A stretch of DNA of 6,681 nt from a virus (taxonomy: Duplodnaviria > Heunggongvirae > Uroviricota > Caudoviricetes). The stretch lies in the IMG/VR virus record IMGVR_UViG_2609459830_000020, one strand, 5' to 3'. The position numbers and the translations under genes are program-made. Positions 1-6,679 of the stretch are shown piece by piece (position 1 is the stretch's first letter; each line of letters opens with the position of its first letter). The notes beneath the pieces are model-generated. The model was not told the DNA's origin and ran no database searches. It saw nothing but the letters and a program-made list of their open reading frames with translations.

Positions 1-435
<435 letters not shown>

Positions 436-598: not shown

Positions 599-1873
599 TT
601 ATTGTTTCTGAGCAAACTCAAACGGCCTGACCATCCCATCCCGGTTTGCATCAAGATAATCTGCCCACCACTGTAGCATCAACCTTCGCTGCTCAAGATG
701 TTTGGCCTTATGGGTATAGGCAGCACGAACGCTGTTGCTTTCCTTGTGGCTCATTTGAAGTTCTACCGCATCTTCAGACCATAGCCCTGATTCAATCAGA
801 GCACTACATGCCAGCGTGCGGAAACCATGACCGCAGATGTCCTGCGTGGTGTCATAGCCCATCTTACGTAGCGCTTTATTGATGGTGTTTTCACTCATGG
901 GCTTGAACGAGTCATAACAGCCCGTAAAAATTAACCCCGCCTCATTACCTTCTTCATAGGTAAGCTGGCGGATCTCTTTCAGTATTTTAAGAGCCTGCCT
1001 GCAGAGGGGAACGAAGTGCTGGCGTTTCATTTTTGCGCCACGCGTGGAATATTTGACGCGCTCAATCGCTTCACGCTTTTCTGGTATTACCCATAACTTA
1101 CTGTTGAAGTCGATTTCTGACCATCGTGCATAGCGGAGTTCACTGGAACGAATGAAAATCAACAGATTGAGTTTAATCGCCAGTGTAGTTAGTCCACGAC
1201 CTTTGTAGGCATCAATACGTTCAAGCAGTAGCGGGATCTCTTCCAGCTCCAGTGCAGGGCGGTGTTCCGTCTCTGGTTTCTGGACAGCGCCTTCCATATC
1301 ATAGGCCGGATTATGACGCATAAGCTTTTGCTGGACGGCATGACGTAGGATCGCGGTGATGTATTGCTTAATCCGCATGGCAATTTCAAGGTAGCCGAGT
1401 GTTTCTGCATTTTTAATCGGAACAAGCAGATCACCCGTATCCAGATCTGAAACGTTGCTGTCGCCAATATCCGGGAATACATAGGTCTCAAGGCGCTTCC
1501 ATACCGTATCGGCGTAATCTTCTGACCATTTTGTTTTGGTGGCAAACCAGCTTCTGGCGACGACACGGAACGAACGGGTTTTATCCCGCTTTTCCTGCAG
1601 CGCTTTTTCATCAGCCAGTTTTTTAGCGTTAGGATCGACTCCCTGAGCAAGCAGCTTTTTTGCTTCATCACGTCGTTGTCTGGCATCAGCAAGAGAAACC
1701 GCAGGGTAAACACCAATGGAAAACACTTTCTGTTTACCATCGAAGCGATAGCCTAACTGCCAGTATTTTGAACCATTGGGATGCACAAGAAGGTAGAGAC
1801 CAAATCCATCAGTGAGCTTGACGGCTTTTTCCGCTGGTCTGGCATTTTTTACTTTAGTATCAGTAAGTGACAT
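599..1873 (-). CDS. int: P4-type tyrosine integrase (site-specific recombinase) of a tRNA-Asn-associated integrative element
   Basis: 424-aa product starting MSLTDTKVKNARPAEKAVKLTDGFGLYLLV, the typical N-terminus of P4/CP4-57-family integrases. Catalytic residues appear present: R in IFIRSSELRYARW, H-x-x-R in GHGFRTLA, nucleophile Y in VRAAYTH. The ATG at 1873-1871 is preceded by GGAGGG with 7-nt spacing. The longer ORF in the track (to 1939) starts in a repeat tract with no RBS. Confidence 0.85.
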   Translation of the reverse strand: MSLTDTKVKNARPAEKAVKLTDGFGLYLLVHPNGSKYWQLGYRFDGKQKVFSIGVYPAVSLADARQRRDEAKKLLAQGVDPNAKKLADEKALQEKRDKTRSFRVVARSWFATKTKWSEDYADTVWKRLETYVFPDIGDSNVSDLDTGDLLVPIKNAETLGYLEIAMRIKQYITAILRHAVQQKLMRHNPAYDMEGAVQKPETEHRPALELEEIPLLLERIDAYKGRGLTTLAIKLNLLIFIRSSELRYARWSEIDFNSKLWVIPEKREAIERVKYSTRGAKMKRQHFVPLCRQALKILKEIRQLTYEEGNEAGLIFTGCYDSFKPMSENTINKALRKMGYDTTQDICGHGFRTLACSALIESGLWSEDAVELQMSHKESNSVRAAYTHKAKHLEQRRLMLQWWADYLDANRDGMVRPFEFAQKQ

Positions 1874-1890
1874 GACGGTTCCCTCCGCGT

Positions 1891-1937
1891 GCTGGTAAAA
1901 CGCAAATCGAACCAGCTTTACCAGCATTTTTACCAGC
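1891..1937. repeat. Cluster of ACCAGC/GCTGGT motifs (GCTGGTAAAA inverted; ACCAGC; TTTACCAGC; TTTTTACCAGC) just upstream of the integrase start
   Basis: Four copies of the hexamer, three direct and one inverted, within 47 bp, located 20-65 bp upstream of the int start codon. Candidate recombinase or regulator binding sites. Confidence 0.4.
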
Positions 1938-2017
1938 AAAGTAGTGTGGGTTCGAGCGATTTTTAACGAACGAGGGTGAACCTGAAGAAGGGAGTAACCA
2001 GTTGATATAAATGCAGA

Positions 2018-2052: not shown

Positions 2053-2128
2053 TGGCTCCTCTGACTGGACTCGAACCAGTGACATACGGATTAACAGTCC
2101 GCCGTTCTACCGACTGAACTACAGAGGA
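2053..2128 (-). tRNA. asnT: tRNA-Asn (anticodon GUU), 76 nt with encoded CCA
   Basis: Reverse complement reads TCCTCTGTAGTTCAGTCGGTAGAACGGCGGACTGTTAATCCGTATGTCACTGGTTCGAGTCCAGTCAGAGGAGCCA: 7-bp acceptor stem, anticodon loop CTGTTAA, T-arm GGTTCGAGTCC. The symbol asnT is inferred from adjacency to mtfA as in E. coli K-12; the several asn tRNA gene copies are identical in sequence. Confidence 0.95.
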
Positions 2129-2228: not shown

Positions 2229-3026
2229 TTAATGAACATTCGTCGCCGAAAACGAGTCTGTATCATTAGTGCGATGTAGTCTCTGCAAAGGATCTTGTTG
2301 ATAAAATTGGCAGAAACGTTGCCACAATGAAGGGAAACGAGGAGCAAAAAGTTCTGGGGCGCTAAAGAAATATTCAGAAAGTACGGCAAAACATTCAGCA
2401 GGATCACTGGCAGCATAAGCATCAATGCTCGCCGCATTCTCGCCAACCAATTCGATTTCTTCCTGAATGTTGTTCATTGCAGCATGAAGATCGTGTTCCC
2501 AGCCAGCAACCTCACGCAACGGAATAAAGGGAACTCCGCTGGCGCGATCGCCGTTACGGGTGTCCAGCTTATGAGCGACTTCATGAATAATCAGGTTAAA
2601 ACCAGAAGCATCAAAAGAATCTTGTATATCCAACCAGTTCAAAACGATAGGCCCTTGCTGCCAGCTCTGACCTGACTGAACAATACGTTGGTTATGCACC
2701 AGACCGATATCGTCTTCCCATTCATCATCGACCACAAATGGCGCAGGATAAATTAAGACTTCATGAAAACCATCCAGCCATTCCAGTCCTAACTCCAGAA
2801 CGGGTAGGCAAAATAGAAGTGCTATCCGGCAGCTTCTTAATGAATCCAGTTCAAAGCCCTGTAAAGGAACAAGCCGCTTTTGCTGTAAAAAACGTTCGGC
2901 AAGAGTGACTAATTTGCTTTGTTCCTGTTCCGTCAGACACGTTAAAAGGGGGATCGATAGTGCTTCCTGCCAGGGAAGGGCAGTTTGATGTGCTGATTCT
3001 TGTACTTTCCAGGGCCACTTAATCAT
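2229..3026 (-). CDS. mtfA: MtfA (Mlc titration factor A), zinc-dependent peptidase family
   Basis: 265-aa product starting [23 protein letters not shown] with an HEVAH zinc-binding motif (HExxH). Start chosen at the internal Met at 3026 to match the recalled length and N-terminus of E. coli MtfA; the track ORF extends 13 codons upstream. The RBS is weak. Confidence 0.8.
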
Positions 3027-3075
3027 CGTTTTGCTCGCAAACTCGTCACTTGAACAAAATTGCACGGACAGGGAC

Positions 3076-3119: not shown

Positions 3120-3209
3120 GGAGAGATGCCGGAGCGGCTGAACGGACCGGTCTCGAAAACCGGAGTGGGGGCAACTCCACCGGGGGTTCAAATCCCCCTC
3201 TCTCCGCCA
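3120..3209 (+). tRNA. serU: tRNA-Ser (anticodon CGA), 90 nt with long variable arm and encoded CCA
   Basis: GGAGAGATGCCGGAGCGGCTGAACGGACCGGTCTCGAAAACCGGAGTGGGGGCAACTCCACCGGGGGTTCAAATCCCCCTCTCTCCGCCA: acceptor stem GGAGAGA/TCTCTCC, anticodon stem CCGGT/ACCGG with loop CTCGAAA, class II variable arm. Confidence 0.93.
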
Positions 3210-3253: not shown

Positions 3254-3300
3254 ACTTGGAATTACTTGGAATTACTTGGAATATTTTCTTGGAATATTTT
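3254..3300. repeat. Four tandem copies of CTTGGAAT (ACTTGGAATT x2, ACTTGGAATA, then CTTGGAATATTTT x2 overlapping): candidate integrase arm-type (P'-like) binding sites
   Basis: Direct repeats at 3255, 3265, 3275 and 3288, lying 45-90 bp past the tRNA 3' end and overlapping the last codons and stop of the integrase gene. Phage lambda places its P' arm sites in the same position relative to int. Confidence 0.5.
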
Positions 3301-4297
3301 CAGGTAACGGGACATCAAGTGTCGGTGAAACTTTAACCTTCCTGTCATAGATTAGCACTTGCCCCTCGGTTTTGTGACCAGAGAAAAGTTGCTTATCCCG
3401 ACTGCTTCCTTCATAGTCTGAAATTCCTTTCGCCTTCAGATCATGAAAGGTGAAGTCGGTTAAAATACCTGAAATTTTGCCTGCGCGATTTCTTGCTTCT
3501 ACCCACATTTCGTTAAAGCCTTTGTACATATATCGGTTGCCGTATTGATTACTGATTACATAGGCGGATGTTGGTAACTGTTTTGCTTTTTCGATCGCCG
3601 CCTGTAATCGTGGACTCCATGCTTTTATCTGTTTTTTTCCTGTTTTCCCTTGCTGGATAAAGATTCCGTCGTTTCCAATCTGCTCCCATTTCAGCGATAA
3701 CACATCGGAAACCCTCGCTGCACACAGATAGGCAATTTCCATTGCGATAAAAACAGGAAGAGGTGCAACGCTTAATACTGCCTGGTATTCTTTGTCGGTT
3801 ACATATCGTTCGCGGTTTTTGGCCTTGAATTTACTTACACCTGCACATGGGTTAGCCTTCACGTACCCTCGCTCATACCCCCAACTGTAAACGCGGGACA
3901 TACTGCTTTTTTCATGGTTGGCTTGCGTTTTACTCTGTTCCCCTCTCTTGTCCATGTATCGACGGATGTGTTCTGGTTTTATGGAATCTGCCGGCACCTT
4001 ACCGAATACGGCAAGCAACTTTTTTTGATGTTGCAGATAATCTTTTTGTGTTCTTGGACTGAGGTCACTGTAATAGGCGCTGGCGAGGAATTTTTCCCAC
4101 AAGCGACCGAATGTCATTGCACGATCGCGATTATTTACAGTTTCCTCATACTTTTTCCATAAAGCAGCTAAACCATCCTTGATGGCGGTTAGTGTGACAG
4201 ATTCTCTGGATGTTGGTTTCCATACATAACTATATTTATTTGGGTATACATTTGGAGGTAGTTTTTCGTGTTCAGGATTTTTCCTTCGTCTTCCCAT
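3272..4297 (-). CDS. int: Lambda-type prophage tyrosine integrase with N-terminal arm-binding domain
   Basis: 341-aa product. N-terminus MGRRRKNPEHEKLPPNVY parallels lambda Int MGRRRSHERRDLPPNLY. Catalytic motifs: R in CAARVSDV, K in QQGKTGKK, H285-D-L-K288 (Lys where box II Arg is expected), G-H308-K, nucleophile Y317 in LIYDR. The start codon overlaps the xis stop as TAATG. Confidence 0.85.
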   Translation of the reverse strand: MGRRRKNPEHEKLPPNVYPNKYSYVWKPTSRESVTLTAIKDGLAALWKKYEETVNNRDRAMTFGRLWEKFLASAYYSDLSPRTQKDYLQHQKKLLAVFGKVPADSIKPEHIRRYMDKRGEQSKTQANHEKSSMSRVYSWGYERGYVKANPCAGVSKFKAKNRERYVTDKEYQAVLSVAPLPVFIAMEIAYLCAARVSDVLSLKWEQIGNDGIFIQQGKTGKKQIKAWSPRLQAAIEKAKQLPTSAYVISNQYGNRYMYKGFNEMWVEARNRAGKISGILTDFTFHDLKAKGISDYEGSSRDKQLFSGHKTEGQVLIYDRKVKVSPTLDVPLPENIPRKYSK

Positions 4298-4500
4298 TAG
4301 ATTGCACCAAAATTCGGCTCTACCTCGCGTGGTGGTAAAGTTTTATTGCAGGTAAATAGATCCCGGCTGACAATCGGTTTGCCACTACGATTGGTATAGA
4401 ACGGAAGCCCGTTTTCCGTTAACCATTTTCGCTGGTGGCTTGCATATTTGCAGCCCGTTAATATTAGCAATTCATCTTCGGTTAAAAATAAGTTGCTCAT
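4297..4500 (-). CDS. xis: Excisionase-like protein (small recombination directionality factor)
   Basis: 67-aa ORF directly upstream of int, overlapping it by 1 nt (TAATG) as is typical of xis-int pairs. The product MSNLFLTEDELLILTGCKYASHQRKWLTENGLPFY resembles small excisionase-like proteins of lambdoid prophages. The RBS is weak. Confidence 0.6.
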   Translation of the reverse strand: MSNLFLTEDELLILTGCKYASHQRKWLTENGLPFYTNRSGKPIVSRDLFTCNKTLPPREVEPNFGAI

Positions 4501-4558: not shown

Positions 4559-6679
4559 TTAAAAATCAGCCTGACTCGGGATCAGTTTTTGCCAGATAAC
4601 TGAAACGTATTTTGCCTGGTAACGGGCGTCATCAAGTGCATTATGGCGCTCACCTTCGAATGGAATAGCCGTTCTGGCATCGAAGTCTATGGCTTTCCCC
4701 AGCTCAACGATTGTGCGTACATCGCGATCGTTGTAGTAACGCCACGGGCAGGGGATCCCCTGCCGTTCGTATGAACGGCGCAAAATCGTGTTGTCGAAGT
4801 TGGCTCCATTTCCCCAGACCTGAACAAAAAATTCACCGGAGTTTTCGTCGATAAATTCCCGCAATTGTAACAGTGCATCATCTAACTGGATTTCATCGGT
4901 CATAATGGCAGATTGCGCTTCGCGTGATTGCTTAAGCCACCATTTAATGGTGTCCCGATCAATGACTCCGCCAGCAGTTTCCAGATCGATAGTCTTACTA
5001 AATTCCGGTCCCATATCTCCGGTTTGCGGATCGAAAAATATTGCACCTATTGAGATGATCGGGGCATCAGGATTTTTTCCCATGGTTTCAAGGTCGATCA
5101 TTAGATGGTCACACGTCCTGCTGGTGGATGTGATTTCTTGATGACCGTTCACCTTAATTGAGTGATCTGCCGTCTCGCCAGTTTCATTATCGCTGGCATG
5201 ATGCTGATTGCCGCCAGTGTTCTCCTTGTGTGGATGTTCAGCGCCTTCCATTTTCTCCGGATCATCTTCCTGAACTTCAACCTGATACTCTTCATCGAAT
5301 GTTTCCTGGTATGTTGCGTCGCCCATCACCGCGCCACAATCAGGGCAGTTGCCGCCGCCGGTCTGACCGCAGGCGGTGCAGACTTTTTCCACTTCCTGTT
5401 GCGCCACTGGTTCAGGCTGTTTCGTTTCTGGCTCGTTTTGTAACGCATTTGGGCTGTTTTGTTCCGCTTTTTGGTAGTTCCGTTCCGATTCATGCTGGTT
5501 CTGGTTTACAGAATCGCGGGTCTGGATCCCCTTAACCCATTTCGGATCATTCGGGTCGCTAATCCCTGCAACAAATTCTCCGCGAGAGGCAGCAAGCAAC
5601 TTATCGGCGTCAGGCTGGCTGATATTGGCTGCCTGCATAATTTTGTTTACTTCGTCAGCGGTAACTTTTACCGGCTCTGGTTGTGCGGTCGTGTCAGATG
5701 CACCAGTATTTTGTTGTGAACCTGAGTATGTACTGTTTTTGCGGGCGAAATATTCTTCTTTCGTGATTTCAGTAGCCCCGGCAGCCAGTGCCTTATCCAG
5801 ACCAGAAAGTTTGTTTGCGCGACCGTATTTTTCGCCATCCTTGTCGGTGAAGAGGAAGTAGAACGGCCCCTCACGCTCTACAGATGGTTCGACTTCCACT
5901 TTGCATTCGGTTTTTTCGTTGTCCGGAATTGCCGTTTCCACTGCATCAGTTTCTGGTACTGACGACGAGAGAGTATCAGTTGCGCTCTGATTTGTTCCTT
6001 CATCTTCAAACACGCCCTTTGTAGTCAGGTATTCAGTAATGTATTTGTTCAGTGCCACAGGGTCTTTGTGAATGTCGATCGGACGTTCACGGACAAGGCC
6101 AAAAATAGTCTGGCGGTCGTAGCGAAGGGCATCAGGCTGTTTGCGCATTGATGTCGAGATACGCTTCCAGTCTTCGCGGTCGTTGTCGATAACTTCATTT
6201 TTTGCCCAGCGATGGATGCTGCCGTCAATGTTTCCGGCATCCACATCACCAGGCCAGAGAGCGTAGGCCAGTTCGTCATCCAGTGTTTTCCATGTCTGCT
6301 TGTATTCGCGATGAATGGCAGCAATGACCAGGCTGATTTTTCCTGTTGAATTTTCAGTGTGCTGTTGATTGACTCTGGCGCGGGCGAGATCAACAACAGA
6401 CGTGTATTTTCCGGTTTCCTTGCGTTCACCTTCGCGACGTTTTTTCCAGATGCGCATCTCTGCCTGAATTTCGGGCCATTTGGCACCAGGCTTACATTTA
6501 TGCTTAACCCACCCGATGGCATGCAGCTTAAGCTCCGGATACATGGCGTTAACTTCTGGCATTTTCATCAACGCTTCAACGATATGTCCGTTGAATGTTG
6601 CCATGTCTTCCTGCAACAATTCCTGTGCGCTAATAACCATATCAACGGTGATGTTTTCACATGTGTCGAACTTAACCAT
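4559..6679 (-). CDS. Large prophage early-region nuclease: unknown N-terminal domain, acidic low-complexity linker with a Cys4 ribbon, C-terminal DEDDh (DnaQ-like) 3'-5' exonuclease domain
   Basis: 706-aa ORF. The C-terminal about 180 aa carry Exo I (MIDLETMG), Exo II ([11 protein letters not shown]) and Exo III ([13 protein letters not shown]) motifs. The central region has [17 protein letters not shown] (CxxC-x7-CxxC). The ATG at 6679-6677 is at the window edge, so the true start may lie upstream outside the window. Confidence 0.6.

Follow-up and report, generated by a model that had tools for sequence, protein, structure and literature searches.

What becomes of a prophage whose integrase carries a lysine at a catalytic position where arginine is the rule? 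Across tyrosine recombinases the Arg-II residue is R in 99.1% of cases and K in 0.5% (Gibb et al., PMC2943603), and lysine as a natural minority state at this position has also been documented by Kachroo et al. (PMC4499138). Since this minority state is natural and documented, a lysine at Arg-II does not exclude an integrase from the tyrosine recombinases. In the DNA studied here, an earlier note had pointed to such a lysine, K288, and proposed that the integrase may be impaired and the prophage locked in place or, alternatively, that the enzyme belongs to a subfamily tolerating Lys. The window, i.e. the whole stretch of 6,681 nucleotides that was analysed, takes in the int end of a lambdoid prophage that sits in serU and contains the following features.

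7-435, plus strand: IS3-family transposase fragment, cut by the window edge
599-1939, minus strand: P4-type integrase with a canonical box II (...GHGFRTLA...)
2053-2128, minus strand: tRNA-Asn
2229-3065, minus strand: mtfA
3120-3209, plus strand: tRNA-Ser(CGA) serU, the integration target, as a composite copy at the int-proximal junction (ARAGORN; alignment to the empty K-12 site and to the Sp14 far end)
3272-4297, minus strand: lambda-type (heterobivalent) tyrosine integrase, 341 aa, of the lambdoid prophage in serU (ORF, Pfam, lambda Int alignments, AlphaFold2 and Foldseek)
4297-4500, minus strand: DUF4224 protein, 67 aa, likely excisionase (Pfam PF13986, PHROG 1266)
4559-6679, minus strand: prophage exonuclease with a C-terminal Rv2179c-like 3'-5' exonuclease domain (homologues Sakai ECs_2770, RM14723 annotation)

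The stop codon of the DUF4224 gene overlaps the start codon of int. Its product matches PHROG 1266 'excisionase' (E 1.7e-21) and is 82% identical to Sakai ECs_2772, and on these matches it is likely the excisionase (directionality factor), a function that Asadulghani et al. doubted for Sp4 and Sp14 (PMC2669165). The N-terminus of the exonuclease is cut by the window edge, homologous genes being 2472 nt long. Copies of the integrase 100% identical to ours are found in E. coli ECMA0423 and S. flexneri SFBU1023.

The earlier note suggested a comparison of the integrase with the Pfam profile PF00589 (Phage_integrase), which is matched over residues 183-317 with 43.8 bits for a cut-off of 27.1. The protein also matches PF22022 and PF14659 (integrase N-terminal or central domains), both covering the central domain, as well as PHROG 1 'integrase' (E 1.4e-53). 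Among all PDB chains, only lambda integrase entries were matched in a phmmer search, and the integrase family profile (34 sequences) matches lambda Int residues 1-321 with an E value of 5e-24. The alignment with full-length lambda Int begins at residue 1, and the arm-binding, core-binding and catalytic domains are all present. At about 21% identity, the two proteins have in common the heterobivalent three-domain layout, which extends from an MGRRR...LPPN(L/V)Y N-terminus as far as the Tyr nucleophile. An AlphaFold2 model computed from the family alignment (pLDDT 92.7) finds full-length lambda Int chains 1z1b, 1z1g and 5j0n as its top structural matches (Foldseek, E 4e-17, TM 0.67-0.80). Tn1549 Int, XerA/D/H, IntI and Cre come next, and every one of these hits, lambda Int included, has probability 1.00. 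Lambda also resembles the window in that int adjoins attP with xis upstream, whereas the lambda target is the gal-bio attB and that of our integrase a tRNA anticodon loop.

The active-site residues lie in three segments.

3713-3724, minus strand: box I segment C192-A-A-R195, where R195 is Arg-I and C192 stands in place of the usual Thr of the 'TGxR' motif (alignment)
3434-3445, minus strand: box II motif H285-D-L-K288, where K288 (AAG, 3436-3434) is at the Arg-II position, lambda R311 (codon reading, alignments)
3347-3376, minus strand: H308 (His-III, 3376-3374) to Y317 (tyrosine nucleophile, 3349-3347) (sequence and alignment)

The 341-aa translation contains ...DFTFHDLKAKGISDYEG... around H285-D-L-K288, encoded by CAT (H285, 3445-3443), GAT (D286, 3442-3440), CTG (L287, 3439-3437) and AAG (K288, 3436-3434). 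The latter reads CTT on the plus strand at 3434-3436, and the earlier note was right in these coordinates and in observing that AAG is one transition away from AGG (Arg). The active-site signature is R195-D198-K218-H285-K288-H308-Y317, and alignment pairs R195 with lambda R212, D198 with D215, K218 with K235, H285 with H308, H308 with H333 and Y317 with Y342. All six active-site residues besides K288 are therefore present, and the canonical Arg at Arg-II is missing, with K288 there instead. Because residues 282-288 'ftfhdlk' align on lambda Int 305-311 'ptfhelr' with posterior 8-9 (phmmer against PDB chains, E 8e-13), K288 corresponds to lambda R311. Relatives that bear R and are 30-40% identical have their Arg in the same column of an FHD[LI][RK]AK motif. 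The placement of K288 at the Arg-II position, as first proposed in that note, is confirmed. In the structural model K288 belongs to helix 285-294, which is where Arg-II is expected in the tyrosine recombinase fold. Relative to lambda Int, our integrase thus has Lys for R311 and, in box I, Cys for T209.

Do orthologues carry Arg or Lys at this position, as the earlier note asked? Lysine occupies the K288 column in 120/120 of the nearest protein clusters (90%-identity clusters, 55-99% identity to our integrase), which come from Escherichia, Salmonella, Klebsiella, Citrobacter, Dickeya, Pectobacterium, Sodalis, Hamiltonella, Gilliamella and other genera. These clusters keep R, D, K, H and Y at the remaining catalytic positions, His-III being H in 119/120. 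For more distant relatives, 1.84 billion 50%-identity representatives were searched exhaustively with HMMER, which returned 7154 matches. Among the best 150 of these, 119 are full length, and their Arg-II column holds 81 K, 36 R, 1 N and 1 G. The two representatives with N or G are apparently decayed. A neighbour-joining tree rooted on lambda Int is crude but gives a plain pattern, with R as the root state of this column, our integrase within a block of 78 adjacent tips (76 K, 1 G, 1 N and zero R) and a second small K-group of six members elsewhere. No one-step change from Lys to Arg was seen in the 120 nearest clusters or in the 78-tip block.

At the codon level, a genome scan using one genome per species yielded 338 integrase relatives. 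Lysine was found in 80/80 of the best loci among these 338, encoded by AAA in 45 and by AAG in 35, in a scan whose pattern itself included the K motif and is unusable for counting K versus R. Use of both codons implies that Lys was kept through synonymous turnover and, given the uniform lysine of the 120 clusters and of these genomic loci, K288 is not a chance or private substitution. E. coli integrase alleles, which diverge at up to 24% of their synonymous sites, have dN/dS values of 0.04-0.10, indicating strong purifying selection on the gene. Members of the K-clade include E. coli O157 Sp14/CP-933U and Sp4/CP-933M, Salmonella ST64B, Pectobacterium ZF40 and Klebsiella KpF5. We therefore hold with high confidence that K288 is the normal, ancestral Arg-II residue of a large clade of gammaproteobacterial prophage integrases of the lambda type. 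The alternative raised at the outset, a subfamily tolerating Lys, is what the counts in close clusters (120/120) and distant representatives (81/119) support.

Lysine at Arg-II goes together with a second peculiarity. Three residues ahead of Arg-I, the K-group has Cys in 86% of cases (YLCxxR) and the R-group has Thr in 94% (xxTGxR); in the protein alignment, 120/120 close relatives have Cys there. Individual phages display the same association, Dobby having C with K, while KS5, LESphi2 and lambda have T with R. This exchange of Thr for Cys in box I is the one outstanding position that co-varies with K288 in the alignments, a small new point. The second, smaller K-group is also mostly without the box I Thr, its six members carrying C, L, T, C, C and L. 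The association of C192 with K288 could equally reflect shared ancestry.

The integration site also bears on the state of the enzyme. Compared with the empty K-12 serU, phage and host have about 61 bp in common, from about 3149 in the anticodon stem to the CCA end at 3209. In the int-proximal tRNA copy, phage-type G3167 and C3178 replace the A and T of the host, two changes in the variable arm that compensate each other as a base pair. They place the crossover within 3149-3166, in the anticodon stem-loop. At the far end, a comparison made on Sakai Sp14 found that the 3' piece of the host tRNA gene, displaced by the insertion, is still there, with 31 bp that exactly repeat the tRNA 3' end. The serU junction is the classical footprint of a tyrosine-integrase insertion into a tRNA gene, in which the phage supplies the working 3' half. 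The site is empty in K-12, and 1094/5426 complete E. coli genomes contain 80% or more of the segment 3100-4600. On the int side of the core, 46-87 bp from the tRNA end, lies a further feature.

3255-3296, plus strand: four direct CTTGGAATW copies, spaced 10, 10 and 13 bp, across the int stop codon (motif count against shuffles)

Four matches to CTTGGAATW contrast with 0.13 expected, and 0/200 shuffles reached four. These repeats are candidate arm-type (P') integrase-binding sites; the opposite attP arm falls beyond the window. One 10-bp unit is missing in Sakai and in three other E. coli strains. RefSeq/PGAP labels int copies of 93-99% DNA identity as 'frameshifted', although their ORFs are intact to the same ...KYSK stop; these flags look like an artefact of repeat number at the stop codon, not gene decay.

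In 35/60 K-type loci, the int stop faces a convergent tRNA gene no more than about 160 bp away, namely Ser-CGA in 6, Ser-TGA in 7, Leu-TAA in 20, Leu-CAA in 1 and Cys in 1. The hosts of these tRNA-adjoining loci range from Enterobacteriaceae to Aeromonas, Idiomarina and Celerinatantimonas. Diversification of target specificity across five tRNA genes requires active enzymes and, combined with the purifying selection, argues that the family is not dead.

The closest known system is Sakai Sp14 (CP-933U in EDL933). Its integrase (ECs_2773) is identical to ours at 333/341 positions (98%), has the same FHDLKAKG and is surrounded by the same neighbours (exonuclease, DUF4224 protein, int, serU, mtfA, asnT) at the same attachment site. 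It differs by eight substitutions and a one-residue deletion, and the Sakai locus has one fewer 10-bp CTTGGAATTA unit at the int stop. The cargo of Sp14 also differs from that of the window's prophage, of which the window shows only the int end. The integrases of ST64B (Sb28), ZF40 (gp02) and KpF5 are 50-59% identical to ours, with R-D-K-H-K-H-Y, Cys three before Arg-I and, as in the window, an excisionase gene directly upstream of int; they differ in their hosts and in variable C-terminal tails, and ST64B is a myovirus-like mosaic whereas the window's prophage is lambdoid. K-type integrases occur in ZF40, which was obtained from an induced lysogen, in KpF5 from wastewater and in Dobby from a kidney stone. 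Dobby, a Pseudomonas Citexvirus, had suggested the phiCTX integrase as a proven-active Lys enzyme, a lead that we dropped as that protein is not a relative (BLASTP E 0.035) and its box II differs. The record vB_EcoM-606R7 (ON470580, 99.7% identical) was likewise rejected as a free phage, since it includes mtfA, asnT and yersiniabactin genes and is a prophage with host flank, which has no bearing on activity.

Several of these relatives have been caught excised. After mitomycin C, PCR and qPCR across attP revealed circular forms of Sp14 and Sp4, and Asadulghani et al. concluded that integrases alone appear able to mediate excision of these prophages (PMC2669165); both integrases carry K, that of Sp4 being 56% identical to ours. 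Sp14 circles were few and became visible only when mitomycin C was combined with regional amplification, and the low excision of Sp4 and Sp14 was put down to defective repressor and excisionase functions and dependence on neighbouring phages (PMC2669165). For ST64B, whose integrase is 59% identical to ours with FHDLKAKG, excision was quantified by attP qPCR and a second host integrase (IntA) was implicated in reintegration (PMC12455584), while its plaque defect was ascribed to a tail-gene frameshift, not to int (PMC5322425). The excision assays on Sp14, Sp4 and ST64B do not pin activity on one integrase, Sakai having two of K-type. The earlier note had held that active close homologues with Lys would speak against a lesion, and the excised circles of Sp14, with its near-identical integrase, are evidence of this kind. 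The integrase is very probably a competent tyrosine recombinase; for the copy in the window itself, we infer activity from its relatives.

Could K288 nevertheless be a loss-of-function lesion, leaving the integrase dead or nearly so and the prophage fixed in the chromosome? The rarity of lysine at Arg-II (PMC2943603), the single transition that separates AAG from AGG and the low abundance of circular Sp14 DNA (PMC2669165) would all fit such a lesion, which would be expected as a private or sporadic change. Yet Lys is found throughout the nearest clusters and the scanned loci, with both codons and no Arg within the clade, in genes of low dN/dS that adjoin several tRNA targets in many genera. 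Moreover, excised circles of Sp14, Sp4 and ST64B have been detected (PMC2669165, PMC12455584) and Cre with the equivalent R292K change is active (PMC2943603). We consider a lesion very improbable, and the impaired integrase and locked prophage of the earlier note are contradicted by the clade-wide Lys, the selection, the tRNA targets and the circles. It is scarcely credible, too, that K288 is a bystander brought to this column by misalignment while a genuine Arg elsewhere fills the Arg-II role. The low identity to lambda Int and the enrichment of the basic residues R230, K302 and K309 in the catalytic domain of the K-group would leave some room for this, but the H-x-x-[R/K] block is gap-free with high posterior probability, the R-bearing relatives place Arg in the very same column, K288 sits in the appropriate helix of the model, and a comparison of K- and R-bearing relatives over the catalytic domain found no K-group-specific conserved Arg near boxes I or II.

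A working Lys enzyme could also have different, biologically meaningful kinetics, with slower ligation or a longer-lived covalent intermediate resulting for example in low spontaneous excision. Engineered enzymes make this conceivable: Cre R292K, Flp R308K and vaccinia TopIB R223K have the same substitution at the same catalytic position and indicate that Lys can support the chemistry, but they are single changes in Arg-adapted sites, with defects in ligation or in nucleophile choice (PMC2943603, PMC4499138). Cre R292K, active in vivo and in vitro, accumulates the covalent intermediate, i.e. it has a ligation defect, and TopIB R223K keeps about 10% activity (PMC2943603); the Cre defect implies that Lys does not fully stand in for Arg where the active site is not adapted to it. 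The appearance of Sp4 and Sp14 circles only after mitomycin C, at a low level for Sp14 (PMC2669165), would be consistent with altered kinetics, and the persistence of Lys one transition away from Arg suggests that it is preferred or entrenched, not merely tolerated. On the other hand, the authors attribute this low excision to repressor and excisionase defects and to neighbouring phages (PMC2669165), and the C192 co-substitution may restore normal kinetics. Kinetics of this kind are, in our opinion, rather unlikely. We retain the reading of K288 as the regular Arg-II residue of a functional integrase clade.

How would such an enzyme work? Most likely in an ordinary lambda-type recombination cycle, the integrase would recombine attP with the anticodon stem-loop region of serU, the phage-borne 3' part of the tRNA restoring the gene, and the adjacent DUF4224 protein would serve as the presumed excisionase. 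The ammonium group of K288 would provide a positive charge and a hydrogen bond to a non-bridging oxygen of the scissile phosphate, which is the usual job of Arg-II; this role is deduced from the Cre, lambda and TopIB literature (PMC2943603). From the co-variation in the alignments, C192 in place of Thr probably re-packs the pocket around the shorter Lys side chain. The clade differs from the engineered mutants in that its Lys is an evolved state with a linked box I change. It is possible, and we propose it only tentatively, that Lys-II and the box I Cys (C192...R195...K288) form a co-evolved, entrenched alternative active-site configuration; this idea draws on the absence of any Lys-to-Arg reversion in hundreds of diverged lineages, although Arg is one transition away, and on the second K-group, which has also mostly lost the box I Thr.

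The integrase itself is of a known type, identical or nearly so to annotated genes, and in this respect the finding is ordinary and already known. Lysine at Arg-II was likewise documented before; what our analysis adds is which clade carries it. For annotation, the case calls for caution, as an integrase with a non-canonical catalytic residue should be compared with its relatives before it is called inactive. Lysine at Arg-II marks a widespread integrase type: about 20% of complete E. coli genomes have serU alone occupied in this way, and it is the type used by the effector-carrying O157 prophages Sp14 and Sp4. The K-clade offers a natural Lys-at-Arg-II enzyme with a linked Thr-to-Cys change that enzymologists could set beside Cre R292K, which would add modestly to a mechanism already well understood. 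If the entrenched configuration is real, this clade would be nature's answer to the ligation defect of engineered Arg-II-to-Lys mutants and may have distinct cleavage and ligation kinetics.

The integrase of the lambdoid prophage in serU (int, 341 aa) carries a lysine, K288, at the box II position held by R311 in lambda Int, and a cysteine, C192, just upstream of the box I arginine R195. These residues, together with the repeats found at the 3′ end of the gene, are located as follows.

3722-3724: codon of C192, 3 residues before Arg-I in box I
3434-3436: codon of K288, in box II
3254-3297: four direct copies of CTTGGAATW, a 10-bp tandem array over the int stop codon (3272-3274)

Across 117 diverse relatives and the phages checked with them, the residue three positions before the box I arginine co-varies with the box II residue: a box II lysine is paired with cysteine, at times with leucine or methionine, and a box II arginine with threonine. 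The integrase family profile also matched a PDB chain of 401 residues labelled ‘Ribosome-associated translation inhibitor RaiA’ (9i5v_14; positions 80-267, E 3e-4), and here either the label of the chain is wrong or the match arose by chance.

The int genes of E. coli M1/5, 2024CK-00184, 105 and RM14723, at 93-99% DNA identity, are labelled by RefSeq/PGAP as ‘frameshifted’ pseudogenes, and the features so labelled run about 35 nt beyond the stop codon. Translation of the M1/5, 2024CK-00184 and strain 105 copies gave an unbroken ORF with the C-terminus ...PRKYSK*, like that of the window, and E. coli O157:H7 Sakai has such an ORF too. Compared with these four strains, the window has one additional 10-bp unit at the int stop, and the flag probably arises from this repeat-number polymorphism at the 3′ end of the gene. 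None of the four direct CTTGGAATW copies would be expected by chance; these copies are candidates for integrase sites of the P′ arm type.

The surroundings of the prophage end comprise the following features.

4559-6679, minus: exonuclease ORF, listed as 706 aa, starting 2 nt from the window end
2053-2128, minus: tRNA-Asn (asnT)
599-1939, minus: P4-type integrase, the second integrase in the window, adjoining asnT
7-435, plus: truncated IS3-family transposase, beyond the P4-type integrase

Since the exonuclease homologues of Sakai and RM14723 measure 2472 nt, the true start of this ORF lies outside the window. The features from 7 to 2128 belong to a genomic island and form its integrase end; the P4-type integrase has a canonical box II (GHGFR). 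In a near-identical record, GenBank ON470580, two short ORFs annotated as integrase and as site-specific recombinase come after this same tRNA-Asn, and HPI genes come next. This record is entitled ‘Escherichia phage vB_EcoM-606R7, partial genome’; beyond the integrase it holds serU, mtfA, asnT and the yersiniabactin (HPI) genes, so that part of its sequence is bacterial chromosome rather than virion genome throughout.

At positions 3167 and 3178, the prophage-proximal copy of serU reads G...C whereas the empty K-12 site reads A...T, and A...T is also found at the matching positions of the displaced tRNA fragment that Sp14, the Sakai prophage at serU, has at its far end. G3167...C3178 is a compensatory pair of the variable arm, lying on the tRNA half supplied by the phage, and from this difference the crossover is placed in the anticodon stem-loop.
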